Source of the DNA: Thermoplasmatota archaeon
GTDB taxonomy: Archaea; Thermoplasmatota; E2; JACPAO01; JAHFTW01
DNA length: 52,763 nt
Direction of reading: 5' to 3'
Assembly: GCA_049617695.1 (NCBI GenBank)
Contig: JBMZJT010000005.1
Span: 2,965 to 55,727, forward strand
In this document: positions 3,948 through 23,415 of the stretch, in pieces
How positions within the stretch are numbered: the first letter of the stretch is position 1
Layout: every line of letters begins with the position of its first letter
The notes under the pieces: model-generated
Seen by the model: the letters and a program-made list of their open reading frames with translations, nothing else
Told to the model about the DNA's origin: nothing
The model's database searches: none
Position numbers and translations under genes: made by a program

Positions 3948-4982
3948 TTAGTTGATGCGCCGGTGCGCCCATGCCAAGACCCCAATCATGCCTAGCAGAG
4001 AAACGGTAGCGATGCCCGGCGATTCTTCATCCAGCGGGACTTCGGCTTCGTACAGCACGGCCATCGCCTCATCTTGGGTCAACTGGACGCCTTCGGCGTT
4101 GGCGTAGGCAAACCAGCTTTGCCGGCCGCCGATGTCGGTGGTGAAATCCAGCCGCAAGGGAGCAACGACACCATTTCCGGGCGTCAAGTCCAACGTGAAC
4201 GATGAACTGGCGCCGCCTTCGAGGCTTTCCGGATTTGGGCGCCCGTTGATTGTCCAGTTGCCCATGGAGGGCACTTGGAGCATGAAGTGCTGGCCTTGGC
4301 TGGCGAGGGTGTTGTTGACGGTGAACGTGTACGTGCCGTCCGAACCCGCGACGGCGACTTCCAGGAACTTGGCAGAGCCCGTGAGGGGGACCGTATCGAC
4401 GACACGGCCTTCGCCCATGGCGGGGAAAATCACGGTGGGGGGTGCCGAGAAGGGGATCTCTTGGCCAAGGACGGGGTCAAAGAAACCGCCCGGCGCCACA
4501 TCGCGCGGACTTCCATCAACGGAGGACAGGACGACGAGGTTTGCGACCTCATGCCCATCCCATTCGGGAATCGGAACCCATGCGTGGATTTGGAGCACAT
4601 TGCCATCCGCGATTTGGTGTTCGAGCTGTTCGAAGTCCGTGGTGACCTCGGCGCCATCGTGGGCAATCCAGCGCGTGTAGCTTTGGCCCCCAACGTCGAA
4701 GGTGAATTCCAGACCCCACGACGCGCCACCCGTCGGGCGAACGGTGCCATCGCCGGCGAAATTTCCCTTGAAGTAGACCCCGTGCGAGGCAAGAGCCGTG
4801 TTGTAGCCATCGCCCACGTAGACGTCCCAGATCTCGAATCCTTCCCACGGGAAGCTGTCCTCATGCCCCTCGAAGTCGCTGAGCGCGTACGTGTCAAACT
4901 TGTTGAGCTCGAGAGCGCCGTGCGCAGCTACGCCGGGGGCAGCCATGATGGCGAGTGCCAGGGCCATGGGCAGGATTCGCAT
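3948..4982 (-). CDS. Exported protein of unknown function with C-terminal PG-TM-basic sorting tail
   Basis: Signal peptide MRILPMAL..VAAHG (start 4982 inferred); C-terminus EESPG-hydrophobic-HRRIN. Confidence 0.8.
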   Translation of the reverse strand: MRILPMALALAIMAAPGVAAHGALELNKFDTYALSDFEGHEDSFPWEGFEIWDVYVGDGYNTALASHGVYFKGNFAGDGTVRPTGGASWGLEFTFDVGGQSYTRWIAHDGAEVTTDFEQLEHQIADGNVLQIHAWVPIPEWDGHEVANLVVLSSVDGSPRDVAPGGFFDPVLGQEIPFSAPPTVIFPAMGEGRVVDTVPLTGSAKFLEVAVAGSDGTYTFTVNNTLASQGQHFMLQVPSMGNWTINGRPNPESLEGGASSSFTLDLTPGNGVVAPLRLDFTTDIGGRQSWFAYANAEGVQLTQDEAMAVLYEAEVPLDEESPGIATVSLLGMIGVLAWAHRRIN

Positions 4983-5040
4983 ACGCGGCCATCCGCGCCC
5001 GGCCATAGAAGCTCCGGCCTCCAGAGTTCGAAGCCGCATG

Positions 5041-5487
5041 CTATCGGCGCCTCACAAGAGCGACGACGAGGGCGCCGAGGATGGCGACCATGCCGAGGCC
5101 GGGCGCACCTTCGGATTCGGGCGTCGGCGCGATGGCCTCGCCTTCCATGCCCGCAAATCGATGTGGATCGCACCAGTACGCCATCGTTGTCGTACCGGAG
5201 GGCACCGTGAATTCAATGGTCGCGTTTTCGCCGGGCTTGATGATGGGCGTCGCGACATCCACGCCTTCGAAGTGGACGTTGTGCGGCGCTGCGCCCTTGT
5301 TCTCGAGGCGAATGGAGTAGGATTGCCCCGGCTCAAGATTCAGCGAAGGGTTGCGCTCTGACAATCCTTGCAGTTGGAACCAGTATTCACCGCCGCCATC
5401 ATGGGCTTCCAGCACGATACTTTCGGCTTGGGCGCTTGCCAGCGGAGTCAGCAGGAGGATCGCGAGCCCGAGGGCGGCGAGGCGCAT
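5041..5487 (-). CDS. Surface-anchored cupredoxin (type 1 blue copper protein)
   Basis: Signal peptide; PHNV His ligand; YWCDPH..AGM Cys/His/Met loop; EGAPG-TM-RRR tail. Confidence 0.88.
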   Translation of the reverse strand: MRLAALGLAILLLTPLASAQAESIVLEAHDGGGEYWFQLQGLSERNPSLNLEPGQSYSIRLENKGAAPHNVHFEGVDVATPIIKPGENATIEFTVPSGTTTMAYWCDPHRFAGMEGEAIAPTPESEGAPGLGMVAILGALVVALVRRR

Positions 5488-5900
5488 CAGTCGCAGTTGC
5501 TCCAGAGGTGCACGGCGTCGTCGATGACGTGGACCTTGAAGTCCGGGCCCGTGCACTTTGCCGGGTCGATGCTCTTGAAATTCAGAGGGTTGTTCCCCTC
5601 AAAGACCTGAATCTTCACTGGGCCTGCCGCGGCCTTCACGGAAAATACGGACTTGAAATCGGAGTCCTTGGTGCCTTCACTTGCGGCTTGGCCAGCGGTG
5701 CTGTAGGTGCCGGAACCAAGCTCCTTGCCGTCCTGGGTCACCTTGAGCGTGATGGTGCGATCGTCTCCGTTGACGTTGTGCGCGCCCTTGATGGGCACGG
5801 TGTAGGAAGCGGCCGGCGTCGTGTCGCCCCCATCGGACGAAGCGCACCCCGCAAGAAGGAGAGAAACGAGCAGTCCAGCAACAAGCAATGGTTTGTGCAT
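5487..5900 (-). CDS. Small lipoprotein of unknown function
   Basis: ATG 5900, LLAGC lipobox; stop overlaps the start of the cupredoxin gene. Confidence 0.75.
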   Translation of the reverse strand: MHKPLLVAGLLVSLLLAGCASSDGGDTTPAASYTVPIKGAHNVNGDDRTITLKVTQDGKELGSGTYSTAGQAASEGTKDSDFKSVFSVKAAAGPVKIQVFEGNNPLNFKSIDPAKCTGPDFKVHVIDDAVHLWSNCD

Positions 5901-6037
5901 GTTCACGGCCACATGTGCCGCGTTCAACGGTCTTCGGTTCCGGGACCGGTTTTGACGTTCATGGCAACAAATCGGACAAACTTCGCATCCATCCCCCCTA
6001 CCGGCCGCTTTACGCAACTGGCTGGGTCGTGGACCTC

Positions 6038-7651
6038 ATGCGCACGCTGTTGATTACCGCCACCCTACTGACGGTCACGCTTGCCGGATGCTTTGGCTTC
6101 GACTCCGATGACGGCTTCGACTACGTCCCGGGCGAGAACTTCAAAGAAACCGGCCGAACCGTCCACCTCAAGGCGACCGTCCTTGACTTGGTGCAGAAAG
6201 AAATCTACCCAGGCATGGAGGCCAACATGTGGGCGTTCTGCTTCAAACCCGCCCGAGAAGACGACACGTACAGTGCGGCCGCCATCGAATACCTTCCCGA
6301 CCAGGAAGTGGATACTACGGAGACGGCTTGGCAAGGCACCTGCAGCACGCCCGGCCCCACGATTCGCGTCGGTCAGGGCGACAAGGTCATCGTGGACTTT
6401 GAGAACAACCACGTGCATCCGCACACCATTCACTGGCACGGCCAATACGTACCCTGGGAGAGCGATGGCGTTCCGGGTAGCACCCAGGACAGCGTCAAGC
6501 CTGGTGAATCGTTCCGCTACGAATTCATTGCAAGCCGCGCCGGCAGCCTGTGGTACCACTGCCATGTCGACACGCAGTTCCACGTCATGCAGGGTCTGTA
6601 TGGCATGTTCATCGTGGAACCCCAGGAGACCCAATGGGAGCCGGACGTCGATCGCGACGTCGTGTGGACCCTTGGCACCCTCAAGCGTGACCTGGTCGAA
6701 GCGACCCCCGAGCGCGTCGAAAACCCTCACGTCGACCACCAGAACCTGGGTGACTGCGGTGTCACGGGCGAACAGCAATGCCAGAATCCCCCCGTCGATG
6801 TCACGCCGGATACATTCCTCATCAATGGCGTCAGCTTCCCCAAGACATTGCAACGGGAAGATACCTGGATTCTCTTGGAGCCGGGCGAATCGATTCGACT
6901 CCGAATCTTGAACGCAGGCACCACCGTCGAGACCATCCACACGCACGGGCACGACATGCTTGTCACGCACATCGATGGCAACCCGCTGCATCCCAACGCG
7001 CGCTACTACGTCGATACGATTCCCATCATGCCGGCGCAGCGCATTGACGTCGCCATCGAAGGCCGCGCGGGCAACGAGGGAGTCTGGGTCGTGCATACGC
7101 ACGTCGTCGATCACGTGACCAACGACGGTCAATACCCCGGCGGCATGCTATCAAAAATTGCCTACCCCGGCTTCGAAAACGACCTCACGCCGTTCGCAGG
7201 CGTGGAACTCGCCGGCGGTCTGCCCTACACGCCCCCGATTGACTTGCCCGATGACTACGACCGTTCGACGACGCGCGGCATGGAAACGGGTGCTGAGTCC
7301 AGCGAGCAGTGGACGTTCCCGGTGGAATTGCCCTGCGCCGTCAAGAGTATCCGCTTCAACGTGGAAGCCAATTCAGTCAGCAACGCCATCCAGGCCCTCA
7401 ACGAGTTGCACCTGGAAATCTTTGGACCGGATGGCAACGAGATCGTCGAAGAAGACCTGGGAACGGCGCGCTCGTTCGAATGGATTTACGACGCGCAAAG
7501 CAGTGAGCTACACCTCGAGGAAGGGGCCTACAACGTGACGTTGTCCGGCCGTGCAGTCGACACGACCATTCGGATGACGGTCTCTGTTGACTACTACGAT
7601 TCTCTTGAAGAGATGGCCTACGATGGCAACCCATGCGACGAGGACCATTGA
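6038..7651 (+). CDS. Two-domain multicopper oxidase lipoprotein (type C-like) with extra C-terminal beta domain
   Basis: LAGC lipobox; HTIHWHG, WYHCHVDTQFHVMQGL, TIHTHG, VHTHVVDH copper motifs. Confidence 0.9.
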   Translation: MRTLLITATLLTVTLAGCFGFDSDDGFDYVPGENFKETGRTVHLKATVLDLVQKEIYPGMEANMWAFCFKPAREDDTYSAAAIEYLPDQEVDTTETAWQGTCSTPGPTIRVGQGDKVIVDFENNHVHPHTIHWHGQYVPWESDGVPGSTQDSVKPGESFRYEFIASRAGSLWYHCHVDTQFHVMQGLYGMFIVEPQETQWEPDVDRDVVWTLGTLKRDLVEATPERVENPHVDHQNLGDCGVTGEQQCQNPPVDVTPDTFLINGVSFPKTLQREDTWILLEPGESIRLRILNAGTTVETIHTHGHDMLVTHIDGNPLHPNARYYVDTIPIMPAQRIDVAIEGRAGNEGVWVVHTHVVDHVTNDGQYPGGMLSKIAYPGFENDLTPFAGVELAGGLPYTPPIDLPDDYDRSTTRGMETGAESSEQWTFPVELPCAVKSIRFNVEANSVSNAIQALNELHLEIFGPDGNEIVEEDLGTARSFEWIYDAQSSELHLEEGAYNVTLSGRAVDTTIRMTVSVDYYDSLEEMAYDGNPCDEDH

Positions 7652-8462: not shown

Positions 8463-9335
8463 CTACGGTGCCCGGATGGCGTGCCAGGAAATCCCCGCGT
8501 CCACAGACTCGAACACATGTCCGCCCGACGTGCTGGCAAACACGTGGCGCGCGTCAGAAGGATCGAATGCAAAAGCAACAGGCGACTTTGCCGACGCCAG
8601 CACGGGCTCATTGATGGGCGCCCAGGTGACGCCCCCGTCCGTGCTGTGGCGGCCATCGCCCGCTCGATGATCCCCCGTCGATGCAAACAACACCCGCCCG
8701 TCGCGCGATACAGCCAGGGACGAAAACGGCGCGCCGCCATCATCGAAAACAGGTTGCCAACCGGTCAGATTGGTAAGGTCAGCGGTTGCAAACAACCCGG
8801 AGGTGGTCGCGGCAAAGAAGGTCTCTTTTGCCGCAGCCAATGTGATGACCGGGGCTGGGCCTTCGATGTCGCGCCAGGTTGCGCCGCCGTCAAATGAGTG
8901 CTTGATGGCCCCCTCCCATGCGCCGGCCACAACGTCCGCCCGGCCGGGGAATCCTGTAAGTGCGTGAAAGTCAACTTCGGCCTTGAGACTCCGTTGCTCC
9001 CATGTTTCAGCGCCATCCAGCGACCGTCGGAGCCCCAAGTGCACCCCGCCATAGTCGCGGGGGTCGTTTGGGTGGCCACTGGCGTAGAAGACGATGTCAC
9101 GGACGCCGTCCTGTGTCAAGCCCATGTAGTCGTAGCGTTCGTCTCCTGCGTACGCCCACGTCCACTGACCCTTCGACTCGGTGCCAACGACAACCCCGTA
9201 GTGCGTGCCGAGAAACAAGGCGCCCTCGGCGGGCACGAAAACCGCATCGTGCACGTGCGTAAACTCCACCGGAGGCGTGGGAGCCGTACACCCTGCAAGC
9301 AAGGCGATCAGAACGAGCGGGAGGCATCGACCCAT
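8463..9335 (-). CDS. BNR/WD40-like repeat lipoprotein (F510_1955-like)
   Basis: LAGC lipobox; HVH, GTHYG, DYMG, SGHP, DFHAL motifs; repeated S.DGG.TW Asp-boxes. Confidence 0.8.
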   Translation of the reverse strand: MGRCLPLVLIALLAGCTAPTPPVEFTHVHDAVFVPAEGALFLGTHYGVVVGTESKGQWTWAYAGDERYDYMGLTQDGVRDIVFYASGHPNDPRDYGGVHLGLRRSLDGAETWEQRSLKAEVDFHALTGFPGRADVVAGAWEGAIKHSFDGGATWRDIEGPAPVITLAAAKETFFAATTSGLFATADLTNLTGWQPVFDDGGAPFSSLAVSRDGRVLFASTGDHRAGDGRHSTDGGVTWAPINEPVLASAKSPVAFAFDPSDARHVFASTSGGHVFESVDAGISWHAIRAP

Positions 9336-9463
9336 GTTGGTTGAGGCGCCTCGTGGAATGAAGAAATTGCGACGCGCGGACCTTGTGATGTGGCGCTGGC
9401 ATGGCGATGCAGAGGTCGTTGCTGCAAAACAGGAAGGTCGTAGGCAGTTGGCGTCTGCCGTCA

Positions 9464-10141
9464 TCATCCCTCCTGGGCTGGCCGCAAGCGGCCGTCTGCC
9501 ATCGTGTAGATGCGGTCGGCGAACACGGCCAAGCGTTCATCGTGACTCACAACGACGACCGTGCCGCCCCGGTGTGAGAAAGCGGACAACAAGGAGGCCG
9601 CACGCTTCCCGCTGGCTGTGTCCAAGTTGGCCGTCGGTTCATCGGCAAACACGACCTTCGGCCGGTGCCCGATGGCTCTGGCAATGGCAACTCGCTGTTT
9701 TTCGCCCCCGCTCAACTGGTCGGGCAAGAGGTGGGCTCGGTCCGCAAGGTCCACCGAGGAAAGGGCGTCCACGGCCATTCGGCGTGCTCGTCGGCCGCCA
9801 ATGCTGCGGAGGTTCAGTGCCACCTCGACGTTCTCGCGGGCGGTGAGGTTGGCCAATAGACGAAAGTCTTGGAAGACGAAGCCAACATTTTGGCGCCTCA
9901 TGTTGGCAAGTACCGCGCTCGATTGCCCCGTCAGCCGGGCGCCCGAGAGGCGCAATTGACCGGCATCGGGCGTCATGAGCCCCGCCAACATGGCCAATAG
10001 CGTCGTCTTGCCACTTCCGCTCGGGCCCTGGATGAGGACAAACTCCCCGGGCCGCGCAATGAAATCTGCGCCGTCGACCGCCCGCGTTCCGGTTCGACCG
10101 CGGCCGTAGCGCTTGCTCAAGCCCTTGGCCTGCAACGTCAT
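9464..10141 (-). CDS. ABC transporter ATP-binding protein (LolD/MacB type)
   Basis: GPSGSGKT, LSGGEKQRVAIARA, FADEPTANLD, VSHD; ATG 10141 overlaps the permease stop. Confidence 0.93.
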   Translation of the reverse strand: MTLQAKGLSKRYGRGRTGTRAVDGADFIARPGEFVLIQGPSGSGKTTLLAMLAGLMTPDAGQLRLSGARLTGQSSAVLANMRRQNVGFVFQDFRLLANLTARENVEVALNLRSIGGRRARRMAVDALSSVDLADRAHLLPDQLSGGEKQRVAIARAIGHRPKVVFADEPTANLDTASGKRAASLLSAFSHRGGTVVVVSHDERLAVFADRIYTMADGRLRPAQEG

Positions 10142-11241
10142 ACCCGAAACACCTCCGCAGGATCCATCGATGCAATGCGCCGAACCGGCAGCAACGTCGC
10201 CACCCCGGTAATGAGGACGGCCTCGACCACGACCCATCCAATACCCGCCCACGTGATGTCCGCGCGCATTTGCGGAATCACCCACTCCGCGATGGCATCG
10301 GCCAGGAAGGTCAGGGCAACGCCCATCTTCGTTCCCAGCGCGGTCGAAACGATGCTGTACTGAAGGACCATGCCGCGTAGCTTCCGCTGCGGCGCGCCCA
10401 TGGCCTTGAGGACGCCGTACTCCGCCCGCCGCTCCATCGTCGCGGTATACACGGTCAATCCAACGACGACGGCGCCGACAACAAAACCGAGGACCATTAC
10501 GGTGGCAATGACCGGCAAGAACGCTTCACGGCTGCCCCGTGAATTGACCTCCGAAAATTCATCCCGCGTCCAGGTCTTGCTGGCCGGAATCAATTCCTGG
10601 ACCGCCCGGATGGTGGATCCTGGGCTGCCATCAACTTCCAACAGGTAGTAGTTCACGACGTCCGGTGATGGTGCAAGTGCGCGGGCCGCGTCCACGTGAA
10701 TGAATGCGAAGTTGCTGAACAGCGTGCTGGCACCCCTGCTGATGCCGACGACTTCGAACGTCGCATTGCCAAGCGTCAGGTCATCACCAATTTCGACGCC
10801 TTCGACGGATGCAAAAACGCGGTCGACGACGATGTCATTGCCGCCTTCAACGAGGCGCCCCGAATGCATGCTCCAAGGCCCGCCCATCCCGGTGGCGGGG
10901 TCATAGCCGACCAAGAACAAGTCTGCACCCTCACCGACGGAGGCCACATGCACGGATTTCCCCATCAACGGTGATGCAGCAACCACGCCGGGGAGCGCAG
11001 CTAGCTTGCCCGCAAGATCTCCTGGCAGGGTGCTTTGTCCGTGGAACAAGTCCCGGGTGTCTTCCTGGGTCACCCAGAGATCGGCTCCGGCGTTGTCAAC
11101 GAAGGCGCCAGCTTGCGCGATTTGGCCGACATAGGTCGCGTGAAGAAACAGCATGAGCAGCACGGCGAACGCTAGGCCCCCGGCGCTGATGGCGAGTCGC
11201 CACGGATCGCGCCACAAGTTGCGCGCCGCGATGTTCACCAT
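10138..11241 (-). CDS. ABC transporter permease (FtsX/MacB-like)
   Basis: N-terminal TM, large extracytoplasmic loop, ERRAEYGVLKAMGA motif, three C-terminal TMs, DPAEVFR end. Confidence 0.88.
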   Translation of the reverse strand: MVNIAARNLWRDPWRLAISAGGLAFAVLLMLFLHATYVGQIAQAGAFVDNAGADLWVTQEDTRDLFHGQSTLPGDLAGKLAALPGVVAASPLMGKSVHVASVGEGADLFLVGYDPATGMGGPWSMHSGRLVEGGNDIVVDRVFASVEGVEIGDDLTLGNATFEVVGISRGASTLFSNFAFIHVDAARALAPSPDVVNYYLLEVDGSPGSTIRAVQELIPASKTWTRDEFSEVNSRGSREAFLPVIATVMVLGFVVGAVVVGLTVYTATMERRAEYGVLKAMGAPQRKLRGMVLQYSIVSTALGTKMGVALTFLADAIAEWVIPQMRADITWAGIGWVVVEAVLITGVATLLPVRRIASMDPAEVFRV

Positions 11242-11796
11242 CTACGGGGACTGCTTCTTGGCCCACTGCGCAATGCCGATGCCGACGATGAGGCCGCCAA
11301 GCACCCACATGACACCGCGGTTGAAACTCGAGCCGGAATCGCCGTGGACGTGGTCATGTCCATCGCCCTCCACGGTGGATCCGGCGCCGGCAATGTGGGC
11401 GGCATGCTCCTCTGTGGTTTCCCCAATCTTGTGCATCTGCGCCCCCTGGTTCACCCAAGTCACCGTGTCGCCCACCATGATCGTCAACTCTTCAGGGTCG
11501 AAGTCCCATTCCTCAAAGTTCTCCGGCTCGATGACATTGATCGTGTGATTCTGGGGGGGAGATCCGTCGGAGGCAACAACCACAATTTTGGCTTGCATCC
11601 AAGGGTGAGGGTGGCAATGGTACTCGAAGGTCATCTCTTCGATGAACGTGTGGCTCCAGGTTTCGTTTGCCAACATGTCGTCGCCCAGGACGCCGCCATG
11701 TTCATCGTCGCTCGACGCAGAATCATCGTGCCCGGGCCCAGCGGCGACATTGATTGCCACGGCAAGAAGAGCGATCGGAATCCATCGAAGTTGCAT
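11242..11796 (-). CDS. Membrane-anchored cupredoxin, apparently circularly permuted
   Basis: Signal peptide; YHCHPHPWM precedes FDPEELTIMVGDTVTWVN...MH; His-rich linker and C-terminal TM. Confidence 0.8.
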   Translation of the reverse strand: MQLRWIPIALLAVAINVAAGPGHDDSASSDDEHGGVLGDDMLANETWSHTFIEEMTFEYHCHPHPWMQAKIVVVASDGSPPQNHTINVIEPENFEEWDFDPEELTIMVGDTVTWVNQGAQMHKIGETTEEHAAHIAGAGSTVEGDGHDHVHGDSGSSFNRGVMWVLGGLIVGIGIAQWAKKQSP

Positions 11797-11884
11797 AGCC
11801 GGTTCGAAACCCCTACGCTATATGAGTCTCATTTGACGGTCTTCGCGCAGCGCCCCGCGCCGCCGCCCTTATTTCACGAGCAAG

Positions 11885-12175
11885 ATGGCTGCAACCATGT
11901 CCAACTTCACGACAGCGTCCACCATTTTCGCCGCGCTCGTGCTTGCTGCAGCCACCGCGCTGGCCATCATCATCTGGCGTGCATCGGAGCGACTTGGCGA
12001 GCGGCGACTGCGGTTCATCGCAGGGGGGTTCGCAGTTCTGGCACTCAAGAGCGCGGTGTCCATTCTTTCCATTCAGCACACCATCGCACACCATGAGGTC
12101 ACGGAGGCCATTGGAACGGCCTTCGATGTCGCCATGATTTCCTTGATGGCGGCGCCGCTCTGGGTCAAGGAATAA
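11885..12175 (+). CDS. Small three-TM membrane protein paired with a transcriptional regulator
   Basis: Three hydrophobic segments; 4 bp upstream of the wHTH gene, an arrangement common in archaea. Confidence 0.7.
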   Translation: MAATMSNFTTASTIFAALVLAAATALAIIIWRASERLGERRLRFIAGGFAVLALKSAVSILSIQHTIAHHEVTEAIGTAFDVAMISLMAAPLWVKE

Positions 12176-12179
12176 CTCC

Positions 12180-12995
12180 ATGGAAGAGGACCTGCGTTCC
12201 CGCATCTTGCGCCTCGTGGAGCGGTACCCCGGCCTCCACTTGCGTGAGATTCAACGCCGCGCAGACTGTAGTCCCATGTTGGCCGAATACCACTTGAACG
12301 TCCTGGAAAAATTGGGCCTCGTCACAAGCACCTCGCATGGACGCTACCGTGACTTCTTCCCCGCCCGACACGAGGCGCTGCCCCTGGATTCAACCGCGAA
12401 GAAGTGGCTGGGACTGTTGCGCCGTCCGCCCATCCTCGCCATCGGCCTACTGCTGTTGGAGCGCGGATCCATGCGGCCAATCCAGATTGCGAGGGAACTC
12501 GGCTTGGCGAGCAGCACCGCCAGCTACCAAGTCCGTGTGGGTGTGGAGGCCGGCCTGCTCATCCAAGAGGACATTGATGGAAGGAACCTGCTGCGGCTCG
12601 CAGACCCCGCACGTGTCCTGGCGTTGCTTCAGGCATACCACCCAACGCCCGACGCGGTGTCCGACTATGCCTCCTTGTGGAGTCGGATCTTTGCGCGGCC
12701 CGCGCCAGCTCAACCGGAGACCGTCCCCCTGGAATCCACCGCGGGGGTTCCAGACGAGGTCCGGGATGCGTCGCGAGCGGTGCAAACCGTCTTCGCCGCT
12801 CTCCAGGCCGGGCCCATGACGCAGAAAGATTTGTGCCTCGAAACTGGACATGCCAGGCGAACCGTGTACGGTGCCCTGCAAAAGTTGGACGCCATGGGCC
12901 TGCTCACGTCACACGTCCATTTGCTTGATACCCGGCAAACACGGTACTGGCTCAAGGACGAATACCGCGCTGCCGACTCGCAACCGAAGCCGTAA
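12180..12995 (+). CDS. Multi-winged-helix transcriptional regulator
   Basis: RILRLVERYPGLHLREIQR..YHL.VLE, second HTH (IARELGLASSTASY), third HTH (TQKDLCLETGHARRTVY..L...DTRQTRY). Confidence 0.85.
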   Translation: MEEDLRSRILRLVERYPGLHLREIQRRADCSPMLAEYHLNVLEKLGLVTSTSHGRYRDFFPARHEALPLDSTAKKWLGLLRRPPILAIGLLLLERGSMRPIQIARELGLASSTASYQVRVGVEAGLLIQEDIDGRNLLRLADPARVLALLQAYHPTPDAVSDYASLWSRIFARPAPAQPETVPLESTAGVPDEVRDASRAVQTVFAALQAGPMTQKDLCLETGHARRTVYGALQKLDAMGLLTSHVHLLDTRQTRYWLKDEYRAADSQPKP

Positions 12996-13019: not shown

Positions 13020-13883
13020 ATGCGCGCCATCCTGCTCTTTGCCATCCTGCTGGCACCACTGACTGCAGCCCAGGTTCCATCCGCCGCCTTCGAGATGACT
13101 GTGGCAGGGCCCGAAATCTTGCCGCCCATGGCTTCGTCCTCCTATTCGCTGACCGTCACCGTTGGCTGCATGGAAGTCCTGGAAAACTCCGGCGAAGCGG
13201 ACGTCACCGCATCAGCCCTCGAACTGCCTGAGGGTATCACCGCTGAATCCGTCGAGATTCACTTCGGCATCGAGGACTGCCTTGGCGAAGAAGCAATCAC
13301 GCAAACCACGACCATCGATCTTGTCGTTGGTGCCAATGCGCATGGCCTCGAACCGTTCACCATCACATTCGAAGCAGCACTTGGGGACCACACGGCGGAA
13401 GCCCAAGTGCCTGACGCCATGGTGGATTACCTACCCGGCCACACCATGACGCCAGACGGCGACCAGGTGTTCCTGGTGGACGGCGACAGCTTCGCCTTCG
13501 ACTTGATTCTGAACTTCACGTCCAACGCCAAGACGATGGTCATGTTCGAAAACAAGGTCGTCAGCGGCTCCGCAATTCTCACCGGCCTCAAGGCACAGAT
13601 CGTCGACGTCGAGACCACCAAGTCCGTCACCAACAACATCGTCTTCACCGCTCCCGAAGAAGCTTGGACCGAAGAGACCGTGACATTCTACACCTACAGC
13701 CACTGCCTTGATGGCCCGGACTGCGGCGAAAACTTCGAGCAAAACATCACCTGGACTTTCCGGAACTCCGACCCGAATGTGCCGGCCAATGATGGCCAAG
13801 TCGACGAAGAAGCTCCGGGGCTTGCCCTGCCCATTGTCCTTGCGGCGCTGGCAGGGCTTGCCATTGTGCGTCGTCGCCTGTAA
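13020..13883 (+). CDS. Exported protein with sorting tail; paralog of 16521-17417
   Basis: Signal peptide; shared blocks DY.PGHTMTP.GDQ and WTEETVTFYTYSHCLD; EEAPG-TM-RRRL. Confidence 0.85.
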   Translation: MRAILLFAILLAPLTAAQVPSAAFEMTVAGPEILPPMASSSYSLTVTVGCMEVLENSGEADVTASALELPEGITAESVEIHFGIEDCLGEEAITQTTTIDLVVGANAHGLEPFTITFEAALGDHTAEAQVPDAMVDYLPGHTMTPDGDQVFLVDGDSFAFDLILNFTSNAKTMVMFENKVVSGSAILTGLKAQIVDVETTKSVTNNIVFTAPEEAWTEETVTFYTYSHCLDGPDCGENFEQNITWTFRNSDPNVPANDGQVDEEAPGLALPIVLAALAGLAIVRRRL

Positions 13884-14469: not shown

Positions 14470-14673
14470 ATGTTCATGGACCTCGTTCTGAAAACGACTG
14501 TCACTTGCAACACCTGCAACCACCAATTTCCCGCAACCATGCCGGAGGATTCCTGTCAGCAAGCCATCGACTGCCCGGCTTGCAATTACCGGCTGGTCAG
14601 AGAAGCGCCCCATTGCTGCGTCTTCTGCACACATGCCGAGCACAAATGCCCGCCCGAGCAGGTGAGCGCATGA
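14470..14673 (+). CDS. GDCCVxC-family small Cys-rich metal-binding protein
   Basis: TC..C.H....MP.DSC....CP.C......HCCVFC.....CPPEQ pattern; this family often sits in mer loci. Confidence 0.82.
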   Translation: MFMDLVLKTTVTCNTCNHQFPATMPEDSCQQAIDCPACNYRLVREAPHCCVFCTHAEHKCPPEQVSA

Positions 14674-15278
14674 GCGACCCACACGCGCCGGCAGTTCTTG
14701 CTGCTTGGAAGGAACTCAGGCACGGCATGCGACTGGACGGCCTGACGTTCGCCCGACGCGCCTTCGATGCGATTCTTGATGGCGTCCCCATGACGATCGA
14801 GGAAACGGCAGCAGCCGTCGGCGCCACGGAGCAACAGGCAGCCGACTTTGTGGACTTCTTCCAACGCGCTGGCCTGATGAACCTGGATGGACAAACCATC
14901 GTGGGCTCGCTGGGATTGACGACCCAGAAAACCGAGTACGATGTTTGCATCAATGGCCGTGATTTGCATGTGTGGTGCGCCTTGGACGCTGTCGGCATTC
15001 CGGCCGCGTTGCACGCCGATGCCCAAGTCCGCGTTGCAAGCTTCGTTGACCTGGACATTCATCATGGGAAGCTGCGGGAGGCAAAGCCCAGCTCGCTACG
15101 AATCAGCCTCGCAAGTCCGTTCATCGCGCAAGACATGCGGCAAGAAATCTGCCCGTCGATTGCGTTTCATGAGGAGGCTGGCCCAGAGCACCCCGATATG
15201 GCGTGGCTCACGCTCGAGGAGGCCATGGAACTGGGCACAATCATCTGGGAACGGCCCAAGTCCGAGAAAACGGTGTGA
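14670..15278 (+). CDS. merB: Organomercurial lyase MerB-like protein
   Basis: IVGSLGLT, WCALD (catalytic Cys/Asp), DMRQEICP.I.F (second catalytic Cys); ATG overlaps the upstream stop. Confidence 0.75.
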   Translation: MSDPHAPAVLAAWKELRHGMRLDGLTFARRAFDAILDGVPMTIEETAAAVGATEQQAADFVDFFQRAGLMNLDGQTIVGSLGLTTQKTEYDVCINGRDLHVWCALDAVGIPAALHADAQVRVASFVDLDIHHGKLREAKPSSLRISLASPFIAQDMRQEICPSIAFHEEAGPEHPDMAWLTLEEAMELGTIIWERPKSEKTV

Positions 15279-15333
15279 CTCTGTGGCACAAAGTATCACC
15301 GAGCATCAAGAAGGCCCACGGCCATCCTTAGGC

Positions 15334-15834
15334 ATGGATCTACCCAGGCCCGGCCTTCTCGGCATCCTGATTCGACTCACCCTTGGCGTGCTCGTCCTCT
15401 TCATGGGCTACGGCGCCATCGTGGACGCGCCCAGTTTCTGGGATGGATACACTGACCCGCTTGGCTCGCTTGGCTACCTAGTCCCGCTCGCCTTGTTCAG
15501 CAGTTGGGTCGTCAACGAACTCGTGCAGAAATCGTGGGGCTGGAAACCGCTTGGGGCCTTGCTGGCAGGCCTGGGCGTTGCCGTCGGCCTCGGCGCTGTG
15601 CAGGGGGACGCGTTTGGGCCAGCGTTTGGCACCTACGTTTGGACCTGGGCGCTTGGTTTTTCGCTTCTACTCGGGCCCGCGCATCTGTTGGCCGCCGCGC
15701 TCCGGACGCCGGGTTGCGAAATGAGGTCCTACGCCCACCTGCGCGCCAAGTTGGCCGGGGGCGACGTAGGCGCCACGGTGTGCCCGGGTTGGATTGATCG
15801 CGCCGACGGCATTCGATTGTTTGGCAAGTGGTAG
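15334..15834 (+). CDS. Membrane protein with C-terminal GCE...C motif
   Basis: ATG 15334; about four TM segments; PGCEMRS...VCPG.ID. Confidence 0.7.
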   Translation: MDLPRPGLLGILIRLTLGVLVLFMGYGAIVDAPSFWDGYTDPLGSLGYLVPLALFSSWVVNELVQKSWGWKPLGALLAGLGVAVGLGAVQGDAFGPAFGTYVWTWALGFSLLLGPAHLLAAALRTPGCEMRSYAHLRAKLAGGDVGATVCPGWIDRADGIRLFGKW

Positions 15835-16175: not shown

Positions 16176-16471
16176 CTAAACGAAGCGCCGGCGCATCCAC
16201 CCCAACGCGCCGATCATGCCGAGCAGGGCAACGACAGCAATGCTCGGGGACTGTTCATCCAGCGGGACTTCGGCTTCGTACAGCACGGCCATTGCTTCAT
16301 CTTGCGTCAACTGGACGCCTTGGGCGTTGGCATAGGCAAACCACGATTGCCGGCCGCCAATATCCGTGGTGAAATCAAGTCGCAGGGGCGCAACGACGCC
16401 GTTGCCAGGCGTCAAATCCAACGTGAAGGACGTGCTGGCACCGCCTCCGAGGCTTTCGGGATTGGGGCGCC
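16176..16471 (-). pseudogene. 5'-truncated duplicate of the 3' end of gene 3948-4982
   Basis: Colinear with 3948-4243 (constant offset 12228); encodes near-identical DLTPGNGVVAPLRLDFTTDIGGRQSWFAYANA...; similarity stops abruptly at 16471. Confidence 0.88.
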
Positions 16472-16520: not shown

Positions 16521-17417
16521 CTATGCTCGGCGCATCAGCAGAGCGGTTGCAACGAGAACTAGCATCAATAGGAAACTGCCCGGCCCAGGGATGCCTTTTG
16601 CCGCATCCCCCTCACCACGAGGAGCGCTGACCCCCGGGTTCGCATTCACGAACGTCCAAACAGGGTTCGCCTCATTGGTGGGGTCACAGCCTTCCCGGTC
16701 GAGGCAATGACTGTACGTGTAGAACGTCACGGTCTCTTCGGTCCATTCTCCCTCAGGGGCAGTCCACGTCACGGTGTATGTGGTGCTCGTTTCGCCGGTT
16801 GGGACTTCGAAGATCTTGTGCGTCAGTCCATTCAGGGTGCCGCCGCTGACGACGCGGTCTTCGAACATCACCATGGTGCGCGCGTTCGCCGCGATGTCGA
16901 GGTCCAACGTGAAGGAATACGAACCGTTTTCGACTTGGAAGGTTTGATCGCCGTTTGGCGTCATGGTGTGGCCGGGGACGTAGTCGACAGCTAGGCCTTC
17001 GATGGTGGCCTCTGCGGTCGTGGCTGTGCCGGAGGCGTCGTTAAAGCTTGCCTGGAGATCAACGTTGAATGGCTCCAGGCCCGGGGCATCAGCCGACGGG
17101 GTGAGCCCTACGCTGCCCGTCTTCGTGATGATGAGGTCCTCGTCGCCAGCACAATCTGCCAGACTGACGGCAATCGTGGCTGGCGTCGTCGAAATCCAGG
17201 ATGGCAACGTTGCATCAACGCTGATGCTGGATTGTTCCAGGCCTTGGAGGATGAGCGCACAGCCGAGGGTCACTTCAACGTCGATGCTCGTGGTCCCCGC
17301 GGGGTCAAGGTACACCTCATCGACTGCCGCCGCTAGATCGAAGTCCGATGCAGGAATTTGCGCTGAAACCGCTGGAATCAGGGCGAGCGTTAGGGTGGCT
17401 AGGATGATTCGTTTCAT
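16521..17417 (-). CDS. Exported protein with sorting tail; paralog of 13020-13883
   Basis: MKRIILATL signal peptide; shared blocks with 13020; KGIPG-TM-MRRA. Confidence 0.85.
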   Translation of the reverse strand: MKRIILATLTLALIPAVSAQIPASDFDLAAAVDEVYLDPAGTTSIDVEVTLGCALILQGLEQSSISVDATLPSWISTTPATIAVSLADCAGDEDLIITKTGSVGLTPSADAPGLEPFNVDLQASFNDASGTATTAEATIEGLAVDYVPGHTMTPNGDQTFQVENGSYSFTLDLDIAANARTMVMFEDRVVSGGTLNGLTHKIFEVPTGETSTTYTVTWTAPEGEWTEETVTFYTYSHCLDREGCDPTNEANPVWTFVNANPGVSAPRGEGDAAKGIPGPGSFLLMLVLVATALLMRRA

Positions 17418-17424
17418 GGTATCC

Positions 17425-19074
17425 TCAGTGTGCGTGTCCGTGGCCGTCTGCGCCGCAAGGCGACCCGGCTTCGTTGTGTTCCGTGGCATCATCGATGTAA
17501 TCGAGGACCCAGTTCATCTCGGCAACCGCATCCACGGCTTGACCCGTCAATTGTGCCGTGTAGGGCCCCGCCTTGAATGGCGGCGCGGTTCCCGAGGCAT
17601 ACGTGTACGTCCATTCCGCGTACCGGGTGTCTGCGATGTCTAGCGTTTCGAAGGCATCACCGTTGGCGTCGCGCAACACGAGTTGCAGGTCATTGAGCAG
17701 TTGCTGTGCCGTGCCCGGAGAATCGATGGCGATGCTGAACCGGGCCGACTTCACCGCGCATGGCAATTCGAGGGGAATCTCCCAGGATTCGTCGACTTCG
17801 AGGCTGGTGCCGAGGCCTCGCTTCGTGACCATGTCCACGTCGTCCGGGAACTCCAAGGGTGGAATGTACGCCAGGCCACCGGGCAATTCCGCCTTGAACG
17901 GTGCAAGATCGTCTTCGTAGCCGGGGTAGATGATCTTCGTCAAACTTCCTCCTGGATATTGGCCGTCATTGGTCACATGGTTCACGACGTGCGTGTGGAA
18001 GACCCAGATGCCTTCGTTGTCCTCGCGGCCTTCGATGACGAGGTCCAGTCGTTCGCCGGGGCCAATCGGAACTGTGTCCTTGAACACGCGCGCGGATTCC
18101 GGTACCGGGTTGCCATCCGTGTGGGTCACCTCGAAGTCATGGCCGTGCGGGTGGAGCGTCTCAAACGTTGTTCCTGCATTCAACACGCGCAGCCGCAAGC
18201 GTTCTCCCGGTTCAATCTCGACAAGTCCCCCCATTTGACTCAACGTGTAAGGGAAGCTGACGCCGTTGATCATGAACGTGTCCGCCGTGATGTCCAGGCT
18301 TGGGTTCTGACAACCGGGTTGCCCGGTTTCGCCACACGAACCCAGGTGCTGGTGGTCAACATGCGGATTCTCCTGGCGGGCAGGCGTGTTTTCCATGAGC
18401 TCGCGGCGCAGCGTGCTCAGAACCAGGACCTGTTCGCGGTCAATGTCCTTGGGTTCCTGGCTCTTGTCCTGGGGTTCGACGATGAAGACGCCGAAGAGGC
18501 CCTGCATGACGTGGAGCTGCGTGTCCACGTGGCAGTGGTACCAGAGGGTCCCTGCGCGCTTCGCCTCGAATTCGTAGGTGAACGTGTCACCCGGCGCGAC
18601 GCTGTCCTGCGTGCTGCCCGGGACACCGTCACTGTGATTCGGCACGTACTGCCCGTGCCAGTGGATCGTGTGGTGATGCACATGGTTGTTCTCGAATTGC
18701 ACGATCACCTTGTCGCCTTGATTGACGCGAATGGTGGGCCCGGGCGTGCTGCAGGTGCCTTGCCATTCCGGATTGGCGACGTCGACGACCTGGTCCGGGA
18801 AGTATTCGACTGCGTCGACCGAATATTGGTCCTCGGGGTCGAGTGCCTTGAAGCAGAATGCCCATGCATTGACGTTCAAACCAGGGTAGACCGGCTTGTC
18901 GAGCAAGTCGAGAACCGTGGAGCGCAGCTTGATGGTCTTGCCGGTCGGCTTGTAGTCTTCGCCCGGCTCGAAATCATTGCTGCCACTGCTGAAGCCGAAG
19001 CAACCAGACAACGTCACAAACAGAAGCAGGGAAGCTCCCAGTACGGCCTTTCCCGGAACTGCGCGCGAACTCAT
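17425..19074 (-). CDS. Two-domain multicopper oxidase lipoprotein (type C-like), paralog of 6038-7651
   Basis: LSGC lipobox; HTIHWHG, WYHCHVDTQLHVMQGL, TLHPHG, FHTHVVNH; His-rich C-terminus. Confidence 0.9.
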   Translation of the reverse strand: MSSRAVPGKAVLGASLLLFVTLSGCFGFSSGSNDFEPGEDYKPTGKTIKLRSTVLDLLDKPVYPGLNVNAWAFCFKALDPEDQYSVDAVEYFPDQVVDVANPEWQGTCSTPGPTIRVNQGDKVIVQFENNHVHHHTIHWHGQYVPNHSDGVPGSTQDSVAPGDTFTYEFEAKRAGTLWYHCHVDTQLHVMQGLFGVFIVEPQDKSQEPKDIDREQVLVLSTLRRELMENTPARQENPHVDHQHLGSCGETGQPGCQNPSLDITADTFMINGVSFPYTLSQMGGLVEIEPGERLRLRVLNAGTTFETLHPHGHDFEVTHTDGNPVPESARVFKDTVPIGPGERLDLVIEGREDNEGIWVFHTHVVNHVTNDGQYPGGSLTKIIYPGYEDDLAPFKAELPGGLAYIPPLEFPDDVDMVTKRGLGTSLEVDESWEIPLELPCAVKSARFSIAIDSPGTAQQLLNDLQLVLRDANGDAFETLDIADTRYAEWTYTYASGTAPPFKAGPYTAQLTGQAVDAVAEMNWVLDYIDDATEHNEAGSPCGADGHGHAH

Positions 19075-19124
19075 TGTGCGCCACGACTCCCCTGTTGACT
19101 TAGGCGTGATGCTAAGGGAAGGGT

Positions 19125-20006
19125 TCACTCTTCATACGGCCGCCTCGATCGAGCGAACGCGAAGGCAGCCACCAAAGCGGCCGTTGCTGCCCAGGTCGGC
19201 AGCGGTGCGTCGCGACTCGGGGCGACTTCCAGGATTGGGCGGACCTGGACACTCCAATCCGGCATGTCGTGCCAACTGCGCAAGACCACCACTTGTTGCC
19301 CTGGTTCCTCGGCTGTAAATCGAACATCGATGCAAGCGTGGAACCGAGGAATCGAACGACAATCTTGCCAATCCGCTGAAGAACCGGTCCAATTCCACGA
19401 CTGGAGGGTCTCGTAGAATGAACCATCCTGGCTTGGGCGGATGCGATCGATTTGGACGATCATCGAGCCGTTGAACGGTTCATCCGGCGTGTCAAAGCTG
19501 CCCCGGACGGGAACCATGGTCATATCGAAGCGTACCTCATCGCCGGGCTTGGCCTCGATGTTGAACAGCAGCGGCCCGGCTTGCTCTGGCATTGACTTTC
19601 CGATGCAATCGCAGGTCTGGTCAAAGAACACGGTCAGCAGCACCGGCGCGTCGTCAAGGCTGGTCAGGGTCAAAGTCGGCCAGCCGGTATGCTGCAAGCG
19701 GGTCGTCGCTTCGTTGATGCCGGCCGTCCAATTCCAAGTCACGGCCCAGGCATCATCATCGAGTCGCGCCGTGATGTTGCCCGATGATACCGCATGGAAC
19801 ATGAGAAACCAATCCTCTTCGAGCGGAGCGCCACCGAAAGCCAATGTCTGGTTCATGGAGCTCTGCGGCGCGAGCGTGAGGTTCCAGGATTCGATGTGTT
19901 GCAGGTACGAACCGAACGGAAGCACCTTGCCATCCCCGACCTCCCCGTGTCCAACCACCGCGGGCGTGGCGAGGATGCAGAACAACACGAATGCGGCCAG
20001 GCGCAT
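19125..20006 (-). CDS. Exported protein with C-terminal TM anchor
   Basis: MRLAAFVL..VVGHG signal; CDC motif; RDAP-TM-RSRR tail. Confidence 0.75.
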   Translation of the reverse strand: MRLAAFVLFCILATPAVVGHGEVGDGKVLPFGSYLQHIESWNLTLAPQSSMNQTLAFGGAPLEEDWFLMFHAVSSGNITARLDDDAWAVTWNWTAGINEATTRLQHTGWPTLTLTSLDDAPVLLTVFFDQTCDCIGKSMPEQAGPLLFNIEAKPGDEVRFDMTMVPVRGSFDTPDEPFNGSMIVQIDRIRPSQDGSFYETLQSWNWTGSSADWQDCRSIPRFHACIDVRFTAEEPGQQVVVLRSWHDMPDWSVQVRPILEVAPSRDAPLPTWAATAALVAAFAFARSRRPYEE

Positions 20007-20063
20007 AGGTCGCGGCCACCAGTCGGACCTGAAAGCCGTGATGCTACCGGGACCAACCATGAT

Positions 20064-20145: not shown

Positions 20146-20790
20146 ATGCTCGCCGGGGATGATGCCCGGCTGGCCCGCCGACAACGCCACGAGCAGACCA
20201 TGAAGGAGACGCGCCTCCAGCGAATGGTGTCGAAATACTGGAAGCAAGCGGCTCTCCTGGCCGGCGTAGCCCTCCTGGTGACCGCTGTCGCCGTGACCCA
20301 ACAAAGCGGCATCATCGCTTCCAAAGAATGCCCCGGTCACTGGCACGCATCCTTCCAAGTCGTAGTGGATGACGAAATCGTCAACATGGCCTCCACGAGC
20401 GCCCAGAACGCGGAAGCTCCCGGCTTCCACATGCACGGTAACGACAACCTACTCCACACGCACCCATCGGCACCTCGGTGCATTCCACTGGGAGCCGCCC
20501 TCTCGTCATTGAATGTGGATGTTTCCTCGAAGGCCATCGACGTCGGGTTCCTACCTGGAGCCGACCGATCCACGGTCGAAGGAAACCACGAAGTGGGCTC
20601 CGGTAAGGAACTGGCCATCTACTACGAGCCCTGGCAGGGAGAGTGGCGGCAAGTTTCGACGTCCTTCTTGAAGGAGCAAATTCCCAACGGTGCCCGGCTC
20701 CTCGTGACCTACGGCGCGCTTGACGAAGACACCATTGCACGTCAGCAAGCCTCAGTGCCCGAGATCCCGGACAACTACAAGCCCCAGTGA
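20146..20790 (+). CDS. Membrane-anchored His-motif protein of unknown function
   Basis: One N-terminal TM; HWHA, FHMHG.DN.LHTH motifs; start uncertain (20146/20200). Confidence 0.7.
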   Translation: MLAGDDARLARRQRHEQTMKETRLQRMVSKYWKQAALLAGVALLVTAVAVTQQSGIIASKECPGHWHASFQVVVDDEIVNMASTSAQNAEAPGFHMHGNDNLLHTHPSAPRCIPLGAALSSLNVDVSSKAIDVGFLPGADRSTVEGNHEVGSGKELAIYYEPWQGEWRQVSTSFLKEQIPNGARLLVTYGALDEDTIARQQASVPEIPDNYKPQ

Positions 20791-20794
20791 TTCC

Positions 20795-22060
20795 ATGATC
20801 GTACGCGCATTCCTGATGTCCGCCTTGTTCTGCTTGGTGTCCCTTGCCGGATGCTTCGGCTCTGGCAACGACTCTGCAGAAGCACCGCGTGAAACCCATG
20901 TGCACGAGATCGACTTGCTGGTCAATCCTTCCACGAGCACGACCGTGCCATTGTACACGCTCAATGATGGCGAGCGCCAAATGGAAGTCGTGGCGATGGG
21001 CTTCGAGTTGCCCGGCCAAGAAGGGCTCGAGCTGCCCAATCCGGAAATCCGGGTGCATGAAGGGGACACGGTCATCATCCGAGTCCAGAACCTCAACCCG
21101 CTGGCGCATACGTTCCACCTACATGGAGGCCTCGTCGATTGGGACATGGACGGCGTGCCCTACCTTACGCAGGAACCGATTCACCAGGGCGAGACGTACG
21201 AATACGTGTTCGAGGACATGAAGCCAGGGACGTACTTCTATCACTGCCACGTGGACGTGGCGCATCACATGGACCTGGGAATGTACGGTGCTTTCATCGT
21301 TGAAGAAGCCGAGCCCGAGTACGAGTTTGATGACGAGTTCACCTTGATGATCGATGAGTGGGACAACTGTCACGTGCACGGCAACACAGACCCTCTCACG
21401 GGCACAGAGAATTCCGGGGAATTCAGCGAACGCGCCGAATGCCTGGAGCGCTTCCTCCAGGACAACCTGGCCCAGAACCAACTCCTCAACGCGGCCAGAA
21501 ATCCAGTCTGCAACATGGATCCTCCACCCGATATTGCGGACGCATTGGACTGTGGGGCGCATGGAAACCCACCCCCACAACAGGAACCAAGATCCTGGTA
21601 TCCAACGACCTTCCCCGTCTACGCTCCAAAATACAACACGTATCTCATCAACGGCAAGGCATTCCCTGACACCGAGCCGCTCGTCGTCGAGGAAGGCAAG
21701 ACCTACAAGATCCGACTCGTCAACGTTGGAGAACAGATGCACAGCATCCACATCCACGGCCACAAGGCGCTCGTCACCCACCGGGATGGCTACCAACTGG
21801 ACTCGCCGTTCTACGTGGATACCCTGGGCATCATGCCTGGGGAGCGCTACGATGTGCTCGTCGACGCAGACAACCCCGGGCTCTGGGCATTCCATGATCA
21901 CGTGGGCCTCAACGTGATGAATGACAACCAAAGCCCCGGGGGCATGTTCACCTGCATGGCTTACGACGACTTCCGCGGCGTCGACGCCTACCAAATGGAA
22001 CGTGCCATCGATTGCATCACAGAAGCACGCAAATTGTTCCAACCCCACGGTGGACACTGA
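20795..22060 (+). CDS. Two-domain multicopper oxidase lipoprotein (type C-like)
   Basis: LAGC lipobox; HTFHLHG, YHCHVDVAHHMDLGM, HSIHIHG, FHDHV. Confidence 0.9.
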   Translation: MIVRAFLMSALFCLVSLAGCFGSGNDSAEAPRETHVHEIDLLVNPSTSTTVPLYTLNDGERQMEVVAMGFELPGQEGLELPNPEIRVHEGDTVIIRVQNLNPLAHTFHLHGGLVDWDMDGVPYLTQEPIHQGETYEYVFEDMKPGTYFYHCHVDVAHHMDLGMYGAFIVEEAEPEYEFDDEFTLMIDEWDNCHVHGNTDPLTGTENSGEFSERAECLERFLQDNLAQNQLLNAARNPVCNMDPPPDIADALDCGAHGNPPPQQEPRSWYPTTFPVYAPKYNTYLINGKAFPDTEPLVVEEGKTYKIRLVNVGEQMHSIHIHGHKALVTHRDGYQLDSPFYVDTLGIMPGERYDVLVDADNPGLWAFHDHVGLNVMNDNQSPGGMFTCMAYDDFRGVDAYQMERAIDCITEARKLFQPHGGH

Positions 22061-22332: not shown

Positions 22333-23415
22333 ATGCGCGCCCTGCCGATGACCATGATCGCATTGTTCATCGTGGCCTCCAACGTCTCCGCCGGCCCCGG
22401 TCATCAAGGCCCGGCGCCCGTCGAAGAATCCATGTTCGTGCACTTCACGGATCAAGGAATGGCGCTGCACCCCACACAACCCACGGCATACGAGAGCCTC
22501 ACAAGCGACGCAATGCCCGCATGCGGCGATGTCTTGTCGTGGCAGGCAGCTTTCAACCAGGGCAACCCAGCGGATGGTGTGCAGGCCGGATTGCTGTCAC
22601 GGCAAGCCGACTTGGACACGGCGCGCCCCAAACTGACGTGGTTCCTGCAAGCCACGATTCCCGGCGCAGGCGGCGCATCTCCTGCGCCTCTTCCCGATGT
22701 CCATCTCGTGGCGAGTCTTCGCACCGGAATGGACACGGTGGCCGTGGAAGATGGTACCGAGCTCGCCCGAGCCGAGGAAACCATCACGCTGGCAACGACC
22801 GCCATGGATGGCGTCTATGTGCTGGAATCTCGATTGACCTGGGCAAACGAACCCCTGCTGCCCAGTGGAGAAGCATTGCAACTAGAAGTCAGCTTGAACT
22901 TCGGCCCCGAACCATGCCAAACCCCGCTGCCCGGCATTGCCCCCTACGCGGATGCTGACCACCAGCCCCGGATTGATTGGAAGGTCTACGATCCCGTGCG
23001 CCTCGACGACTTTCGCGCCCAAGACGACCATGGCACCGTCACCCTCACACTGGAAGCGACCAGCCCCTGGGGCTCCGGGCACATCGCACCCGTCGACGAC
23101 CCCACGATCGCAGGCGGAATCGGCCCCGTGAGCGGCGTGACCCGAACCGGCATCGAAGAAGGGGACCTCCTGCGCATCACGTGGACCTGGCTCCAAGGCT
23201 CGGCCCCCAACGGCACCTACCGCGCCGACATCCTGATCCAGGACATCTTCGGCGCAGTTTCGACGCCAGACAACATCGTCTTCACCGTTGGTGACAACCG
23301 CGAACCGAGACAAGTGCCACTGGAGCCAGAGCCAGTCAAGGAATCGCCTGGCCTGGGCATTGCCGCGTTACTCGCCGTTTTCGGCTTGGTTATGAAGAAC
23401 CGAAGCAAATTGTAG
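22333..23415 (+). CDS. Exported protein with sorting tail
   Basis: Signal peptide ..VSAGPGH; KESPG-TM-KNRSKL. Confidence 0.8.
   Translation: MRALPMTMIALFIVASNVSAGPGHQGPAPVEESMFVHFTDQGMALHPTQPTAYESLTSDAMPACGDVLSWQAAFNQGNPADGVQAGLLSRQADLDTARPKLTWFLQATIPGAGGASPAPLPDVHLVASLRTGMDTVAVEDGTELARAEETITLATTAMDGVYVLESRLTWANEPLLPSGEALQLEVSLNFGPEPCQTPLPGIAPYADADHQPRIDWKVYDPVRLDDFRAQDDHGTVTLTLEATSPWGSGHIAPVDDPTIAGGIGPVSGVTRTGIEEGDLLRITWTWLQGSAPNGTYRADILIQDIFGAVSTPDNIVFTVGDNREPRQVPLEPEPVKESPGLGIAALLAVFGLVMKNRSKL

Follow-up and report, generated by a model that had tools for sequence, protein, structure and literature searches.

A circularly permuted type-1 cupredoxin family in an order of Thermoplasmatota

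The permuted cupredoxin and its locus

The window, which is the complete stretch of 52,763 nucleotides analysed here, originates from a Thermoplasmatota archaeon. Its genes make up an island for metal handling, with three multicopper oxidases of two domains each, two cupredoxins of normal order and NikR-like, CDF, ZIP, MerB-like and Zn/Cd-type ATPase genes; the P-type ATPase of the window scored best as a Zn/Cd type. The gene under study is located on the minus strand and encodes a protein of 184 amino acids. The features of this gene and of its surroundings are as follows.

11242..11796, minus strand: open reading frame of the permuted type-1 cupredoxin, 184 amino acids including a signal peptide, arms rich in His and a membrane anchor at the C-terminus (translation and homologs)
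11740..11796, minus strand: predicted signal peptide, residues 1-19, a hydrophobic helix with AAA followed by GPGH (hydropathy; helix 5-18 in the model; putative cleavage site)
11575..11691, minus strand: cupredoxin half that is normally C-terminal and here comes first, residues 36-74, aligning with amicyanin 68-104
11614-11616, 11605-11607 and 11596-11598, minus strand: ligands C61, H64 and M67 of the Cys-His-Met loop, in the first-placed half
11548..11574, minus strand: linker from the old C-terminus to the old N-terminus, residues 75-83, in the model a loop between strands 68-74 and 83-89
11416..11547, minus strand: cupredoxin half that is normally N-terminal and here comes second, residues 84-127, aligning with amicyanin 28-55
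11431-11433, minus strand: lone ligand H122, in the second-placed half, which also has an E-P...W-x-F-x-P insert
11332..11415, minus strand: H131 and H134 in an EHAxHI helix, H149 and H151 in a His-rich tether, possible additional metal sites
11251..11319, minus strand: predicted C-terminal transmembrane anchor, residues 160-182 (hydropathy and model)
11818..11837, minus strand: conserved promoter element, made up of GTCAAATGA and then a TATA-like box, located 41 nt upstream of the ATG, candidate operator
11885..12995, plus strand: divergent genes for a DUF7521-like small membrane protein (likely start 11897) and a winged-helix ArsR/MarR-type regulator (Pfam/NCBIfam; DUF7521 below cut-off)
5888..7651, plus strand: multicopper oxidase of two domains, of which only domain 1 has a T1 cysteine, candidate redox partner
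8463..11241, minus strand: genes immediately downstream of the permuted gene, for a MacB/FtsX permease, an ABC ATPase and a BNR (F510_1955-like) protein

The type-1 copper of amicyanin is bound by His, Cys, His and Met. Amicyanin (1AAC) was the best match of the 184-aa protein among solved structures (phmmer, E 4.3e-11), and it was matched in two blocks in reverse order, residues 37-73 of the query corresponding to 68-104 and residues 97-124 to 28-55 of amicyanin. The Pfam family PF00127 scored 34.5 bits (cut-off 21.2), again in two stretches. In the canonical order of this family the lone His lies ahead of the Cys-His-Met loop; in the 184-aa protein the blocks are reversed, and judged by its sequence it is a variant and no ordinary member of PF00127. 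C61, H64, M67 and H122 align with the four ligands of amicyanin, and H122 is invariant in all 23 rows of the alignment. The order of the halves and the retention of all four ligands at these positions had been proposed in an earlier note on this DNA; both were borne out, the former by the reversed amicyanin match and a scan with half-domain profiles, the latter by the sequence conservation among homologs. As that note had also stated, the other cupredoxins of the window (5044 and 25167) have the normal order.

Between the signal helix and the anchor there is room for a single domain's worth of sequence, and the permuted domain begins and finishes in the loop after the lone-His strand. The short connection between the halves is common: in 61 of 75 archaeal permuted domains the spacer between the half-profile matches has 7-9 residues. 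Downstream of the domain, H131, H134 and H151 are invariant in all 11 close homologs, and the motif EHxxH[IV] is present in 19 of the 39 standalone permuted proteins.

AlphaFold models were calculated with two alignments. With 11 rows the pLDDT of the core was 76-95; with 23 rows it reached 93-98 over residues 41-130, and the linker region (residues 71-80) was predicted with a pLDDT of 94. Among 48,161 chains the engineered circularly permuted azurin 5SYD was for both models the sole match with Z>=5 (Z 5.2 and 5.8, rmsd 3.5 and 3.9, 90 and 91 residues aligned). Even the value of 5.8 is middling, as a Z below 8 may reflect a common arrangement, and rank 2 scores 4.8. In this model the superposition comprises both halves, residues 24-119, and stops before H122. 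Foldseek returned 5SYD at rank 1 (first model) and rank 2, at E values of 0.15-0.2, and over all five fold searches it came first four times and second once. Because of the middling Z values, these matches count only alongside the sequence match. The order-dependent fold searches had no normal cupredoxin among the matches listed, which says nothing about folds differing. That both halves join in one barrel is supported by the confident model superposing on the permuted azurin and by the finding of the same unit inserted in other domains. The predicted model is a Greek-key beta-sandwich formed by one chain, with the reservation of the middling Z.

Gene integrity, family breadth and origin

An unusual order of this kind could also result from a misassembly or from a decaying remnant of a two-domain gene, and the profile matches include tandem cupredoxin arrays as a frequent type. 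However, a 1301-base stretch containing the gene was found whole within a single contig in three of four sequencing runs (X1, X5 and X10). The X1 contig is identical to the stretch and possibly its source data; X5 and X10 belong to two other studies and have 57 differences. No joints were listed across the stretch in these assembled contigs, which are not raw reads. Of the listed strain differences inside the gene, 15 of 22 fall at the third codon position, and 16 more differences are located in the stretch in addition to those listed. Comparison of the gene with four homologs yielded a dN of 0.27-0.47 versus a dS of 2.0-3.3; the gene is under strong purifying selection. A six-frame scan of the gene and 1.5 kb on each side (locus L081) with the half-domain profiles detected a sole C-then-N pair and no lost half nearby. 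The possibility of a misassembly or a broken two-domain gene, which the earlier note had raised, was not borne out. The other-study contigs, the six-frame scan, a dN far below dS and permuted homologs verified in 28 genomes rule such an artefact out, and exactly one full domain lies between signal peptide and anchor; we consider the probability of this explanation as negligible. The chain order is swapped and the four ligands are conserved, in an intact and conserved gene.

Many homologs with the same order were found across the window's Thermoplasmatota order. Already in a first homolog search 10 of 11 matches had the full permuted order, with 43-97% identity. The half-domain profiles identified 111 C-then-N matches, 78 of them distinct at 95% identity. 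One candidate, L005:4688-5884, was rejected as a permuted domain and excluded before all counts; it is a normal tandem protein with a low-scoring first half. Cys, His, Met and the lone His are all kept in 75 of the 78 distinct domains, and the other three have lost all four, a joint loss that is expected if the residues form one shared site. These three members may be one lineage, in which case they would represent a single loss event. The ligand-less members (L120:1504-1998, L121:1-939 and L124:1-726) have kept their His-rich tails, and the one in L120 still adjoins a DUF7521/HTH pair.

A class-wide search at E 1e-12 matched 29 of 197 genomes, all of them within the window's order (29 of 38 genomes), and none of the 159 genomes of the class outside this order. 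Inspection of the best locus in 30 genomes revealed 28 permuted proteins, one locus cut by a contig end and one protein in normal order. The permuted cupredoxin is an order-wide family in Thermoplasmatota, real and under selection, a breadth that the earlier note had not recognised. In the source annotations its members are named plastocyanin or hypothetical protein. The ESM Atlas provided only leads below 0.9, all cupredoxin-like or unnamed.

The permuted domain is not restricted to small proteins but is mobile and travels as one piece. It is located at the C-terminus of the larger surface proteins P0099, P0121 and P0124; the N-terminal part of P0121 has weak similarity to the window ORF 3948-5039 (E 0.002, 23%). 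In L118 (121-1824) it ends a CopC-CopD fusion, and in L097 (2-1932) a permuted cupredoxin follows directly 3' of CopC-CopD. In the lipoproteins P0199 and P0228 it sits within a PKD domain. Lipoproteins in which it interrupts a PKD-like domain are encoded at L005:7341-8789, L021:3435-4832, L122:1018-2271 and L004:7497-8837, three of the four next to a class III aminotransferase. The bacterial proteins P0272-P0274 and P0276 contain the permuted unit inside domain 2 of a two-domain multicopper oxidase and then carry a Kelch/galactose-oxidase-like domain. From 62 bacterial fusion loci (L130-L191) 47 open reading frames could be scored: the Cys-His-Met loop was present in 47 of 47, and the lone-His pattern after the loop in 44 of 47. 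This fusion of oxidase, permuted cupredoxin and Kelch/galactose-oxidase-like domain is widespread.

As the host domain resumes after the inserted unit, the halves should pack against one another and the termini lie near each other, which implies that the permuted C-then-N unit is a self-contained domain. The halves could instead pair between chains, resulting in a domain-swapped dimer or chain with sites built from two molecules in normal order. Such pairing is conceivable for any permuted chain, and a single-chain prediction cannot discriminate between the two arrangements; the confident intrachain model including the linker (residues 71-80), the conserved short spacer and the insertion of the unit within host domains nevertheless make pairing between chains very improbable.

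Concerning the origin of the permutation, the E-P...W-x-F-x-P insert was found in 41 of 591 tandem N-halves, in 1 of 157 single domains and in 44 of 75 archaeal permuted domains. For the G-x-x-P motif ahead of the strand the corresponding numbers are 13 of 591, 0 of 157 and 23 of 75. Among the insert-bearing tandem junctions 10 of 37 have a C-to-N spacer of 8-10 residues, like the permuted linker; the tandem set had been retrieved by means of the permuted profile, so that insert, motif and spacer features are enriched in it. Tandem tri-cupredoxins with these features would represent the intermediate needed by a route of duplication and trimming, and on this circumstantial evidence an origin by tandem duplication and trimming seems plausible. 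Domain trees (178 and 76 domains, 81 columns) gave little resolution. Both the form inserted in bacterial oxidases and the one inserted in PKD domains are placed outside the main group, on branches that carry no starred support. In the small set of 76 domains one common origin could not be rejected (p-AU 0.33), but this is no demonstration of it. Our tentative generalization is that the natural type-1 module with swapped ligands could be a self-contained plug-in redox cassette, which is anchored beside an oxidase partner in the window, fused to CopC-CopD elsewhere and inserted in PKD and oxidase-radical-oxidase loops, and that archaea and bacteria may have arrived at the same cut on more than one occasion.

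Gene neighbourhood and proposed role

The transcript of the permuted gene is likely leaderless. No RNA data set was listed as containing the sequence, which has no bearing on whether the gene is expressed. The motif GTCAAAT[G/T]A and a TATA-like box are present with equal spacing upstream of the gene in eight other genomes. A matrix built from nine sites (seven other genomes) scored the window site with 27.5 bits, whereas the runner-up in the entire 1.67 Mb genome reached 14.2. The motif also occurs upstream of the oxidase in L003 and L105, and it was not found before any of the three oxidases in this genome. A perfect palindrome in the promoter, ATGAGACTCAT, was dropped as operator candidate, as it is not conserved in nine other loci. 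The divergent DUF7521-like/winged-helix pair adjoins the gene in eight of nine other close-subfamily genomes, the contig of the ninth ending there, and likely regulates the permuted gene. A homolog of the oxidase is nearby in seven of these nine genomes, in one case by a short edge match. The permease, ATPase and BNR genes probably share a transcript with the permuted gene; at the other permuted loci there was no match to the permease, and a BNR homolog was found in L003. This locus also contains CopZ, a two-HMA P-type ATPase and an AsnC-TRASH regulator.

Distant subfamilies of the order adjoin housekeeping genes, namely a glyoxalase-fold protein with biotin ligase (L110-L116), a transketolase-like gene (L112, L125) and an aminotransferase (L005, L021, L122), and no oxidase was detected within 1.5 kb of these loci. 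In total the genome encodes at least four normal-order cupredoxins, and COX1 and cytochrome b are encoded on other contigs, so that there are further roles and partners to be had.

Several further observations concern the surroundings. In all three two-domain oxidases of the window (5888-7651, 17425-19128 and 20720-22060) the T1 Cys is confined to domain 1. A local duplication is suggested for the first two, which are closely related paralogs and each have an uncharacterised anchored protein as neighbour; these neighbours (13020-13883 and 16521-17492) resemble each other as well. A short ORF (16176-16421, minus strand) nearly repeats the C-terminal end (3948-4275, minus strand) of ORF 3948-5039 and is a partial duplicate or a remnant. 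A gene of the MerB (alkylmercury lyase) type and, after it, one for a small membrane protein occupy positions 14597-15834, and 23926-29564 contains a NikR-like regulator, a CDF transporter, a cupredoxin, a His-rich Zn/Cd-type P-type ATPase and a ZIP protein with an exported N-terminal domain. Uncharacterised exported proteins with a sorting-like tail (PG, a hydrophobic stretch and RRR) are encoded at 3948-5556, 13020-13883, 16521-17492, 19125-20060 and 22333-23415, with no NCBIfam match at 1e-8. In L192 (5637-7390) a normal-order cupredoxin lies directly upstream of a multicopper-oxidase-like protein with a C-terminal cupredoxin.

The regulator pair and the two-domain oxidase beside the close relatives, the promoter motif shared with oxidases and the copper genes of L003 make a function as electron or copper partner in copper handling likely. 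The rearrangement itself is well supported, copper binding is likely, and it is the partner and the role that we infer. The reading that we favour, with some reserve, is that the permuted cupredoxin forms one barrel with a type-1 copper and acts at the outer face as electron (and copper) partner of the neighbouring oxidase in copper handling. The signal peptide would export the protein, and the C-terminal helix is predicted to anchor it on the outer face of the membrane. According to the model the 9-residue linker would, with high probability, close the barrel and bring His122 back beside Cys61, His64 and Met67. The resulting amicyanin-like blue site would quite likely cycle between Cu(I) and Cu(II), and the His-rich arms might gather copper as in CopI. 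The divergent regulator would co-regulate the permuted gene and the oxidase, and electrons may well pass to the oxidase for Cu(I) oxidation or copper buffering.

The strongest alternative to copper handling is a function in respiration, because the genome has COX1 and cytochrome b. The same permuted type-1 protein would then be a general membrane-bound carrier, from the quinol side to a terminal oxidase or as acceptor of a surface dehydrogenase, and would not be linked to copper handling in particular. Distant family members outside copper loci fit this role, and the available part of PMC9038741 proposes small one-domain blue copper proteins as replacement of cytochrome c in related Thermoplasmata. 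However, COX1 and cytochrome b are located on other contigs, the close subfamily retains the regulator pair, a dedicated promoter motif and an adjacent multicopper oxidase, and the CopC-CopD fusion also points away from respiration. We regard the respiratory role as rather unlikely.

Lower still is our estimate for a protein that is mainly a copper buffer or chaperone, or a stand-alone cuprous oxidase like CopI, with His-rich arms that store copper, a ligand site that passes it to oxidases or to an importer, and electron transfer as a secondary function. The 184 residues include 13 His, 28 of the 39 standalone proteins have at least four His within the 45 residues that follow the domain, and three members persist without any ligand. 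The CopC-CopD fusion fits this function too, and CopI, as far as described in the available text of PMC13308877, pairs a cupredoxin site with His-rich copper sites. On the other hand, the sequence is devoid of a CopI-like internal His/Met-rich segment, the compact CHPHPWM loop matches the electron-transfer loop of amicyanin, and in 4 of 39 proteins the tether has no His. Copper handling as electron partner of the oxidase is the role that we retain.

Comparison with known cupredoxins

The earlier note knew of no characterised natural permuted cupredoxin, and the literature search agrees with this: the full texts covered, with subscription journals largely outside coverage, included engineered permutants only and no natural one. 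In the accessible part of the CIRPIN main text (PMC13552848) there was no match for cupredoxin, azurin, plastocyanin or copper; its 18-million-pair database may list such pairs unnamed. The blue-copper site is a model case of a metal site shaped by the fold, and a natural family with the lone His behind the Cys loop offers a direct test of the influence of chain order on colour, potential, folding and stability. As a scaffold, the permuted cupredoxin has the further merit of already occurring in nature as an insert within other domains. Finally, the family exposes a blind spot, as order-dependent fold searches listed no normal cupredoxin and annotations say plastocyanin or hypothetical.

Amicyanin (1AAC, 1MDA) shares with the permuted protein the short C-x2-H-x2-M loop and a lone His after W-x-N. 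In contrast to amicyanin, plastocyanin and azurin, the permuted protein has the lone His after the Cys loop, a membrane anchor and His-rich arms. With the amicyanin model TIGR02657 it scored 50.6 bits, below the cut-off of 110.2, and among the 54 of 56 predicted window ORFs that were scanned there were no methylamine dehydrogenase genes.

The engineered azurins cpAz (5SYD), cpN42 and cpF114 likewise have a permuted cupredoxin barrel, but are man-made. We take 5SYD to be the azurin cut at Asn42. With the Asn42 cut, His46 is still ahead of Cys112, and the Phe114 cut is inside the ligand loop; the natural chain, unlike these engineered azurins, is opened directly behind the lone-His strand. The end of the superposition on 5SYD at 118-119, before H122, fits the differing cut point. 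In the available text of 10.1101/2025.10.10.681544, cpN42 and cpF114 keep a near-native Cu site, and the engineered permuted azurins are less stable than the wild type.

Uncharacterised tandem tri-cupredoxins (P0014, P0041-P0043 and P0050; P0042 is from Actinomycetota according to its source) have the insert and the G-x-x-P motif in common with the permuted family. They differ by the normal order within each domain and have no supported sister placement in the tree. CopI of Rubrivivax gelatinosus, a green cupredoxin of copper tolerance, is likewise an exported single cupredoxin with extra His-rich segments and a tie to copper handling (PMC13308877, available part). The comparison was made by description: CopI requires an internal His/Met-rich segment next to an N-terminal His-rich site (same source, same part), whereas inspection of the 184-aa sequence found the His-rich arms but no such segment. 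CopI is a functional analogue only.
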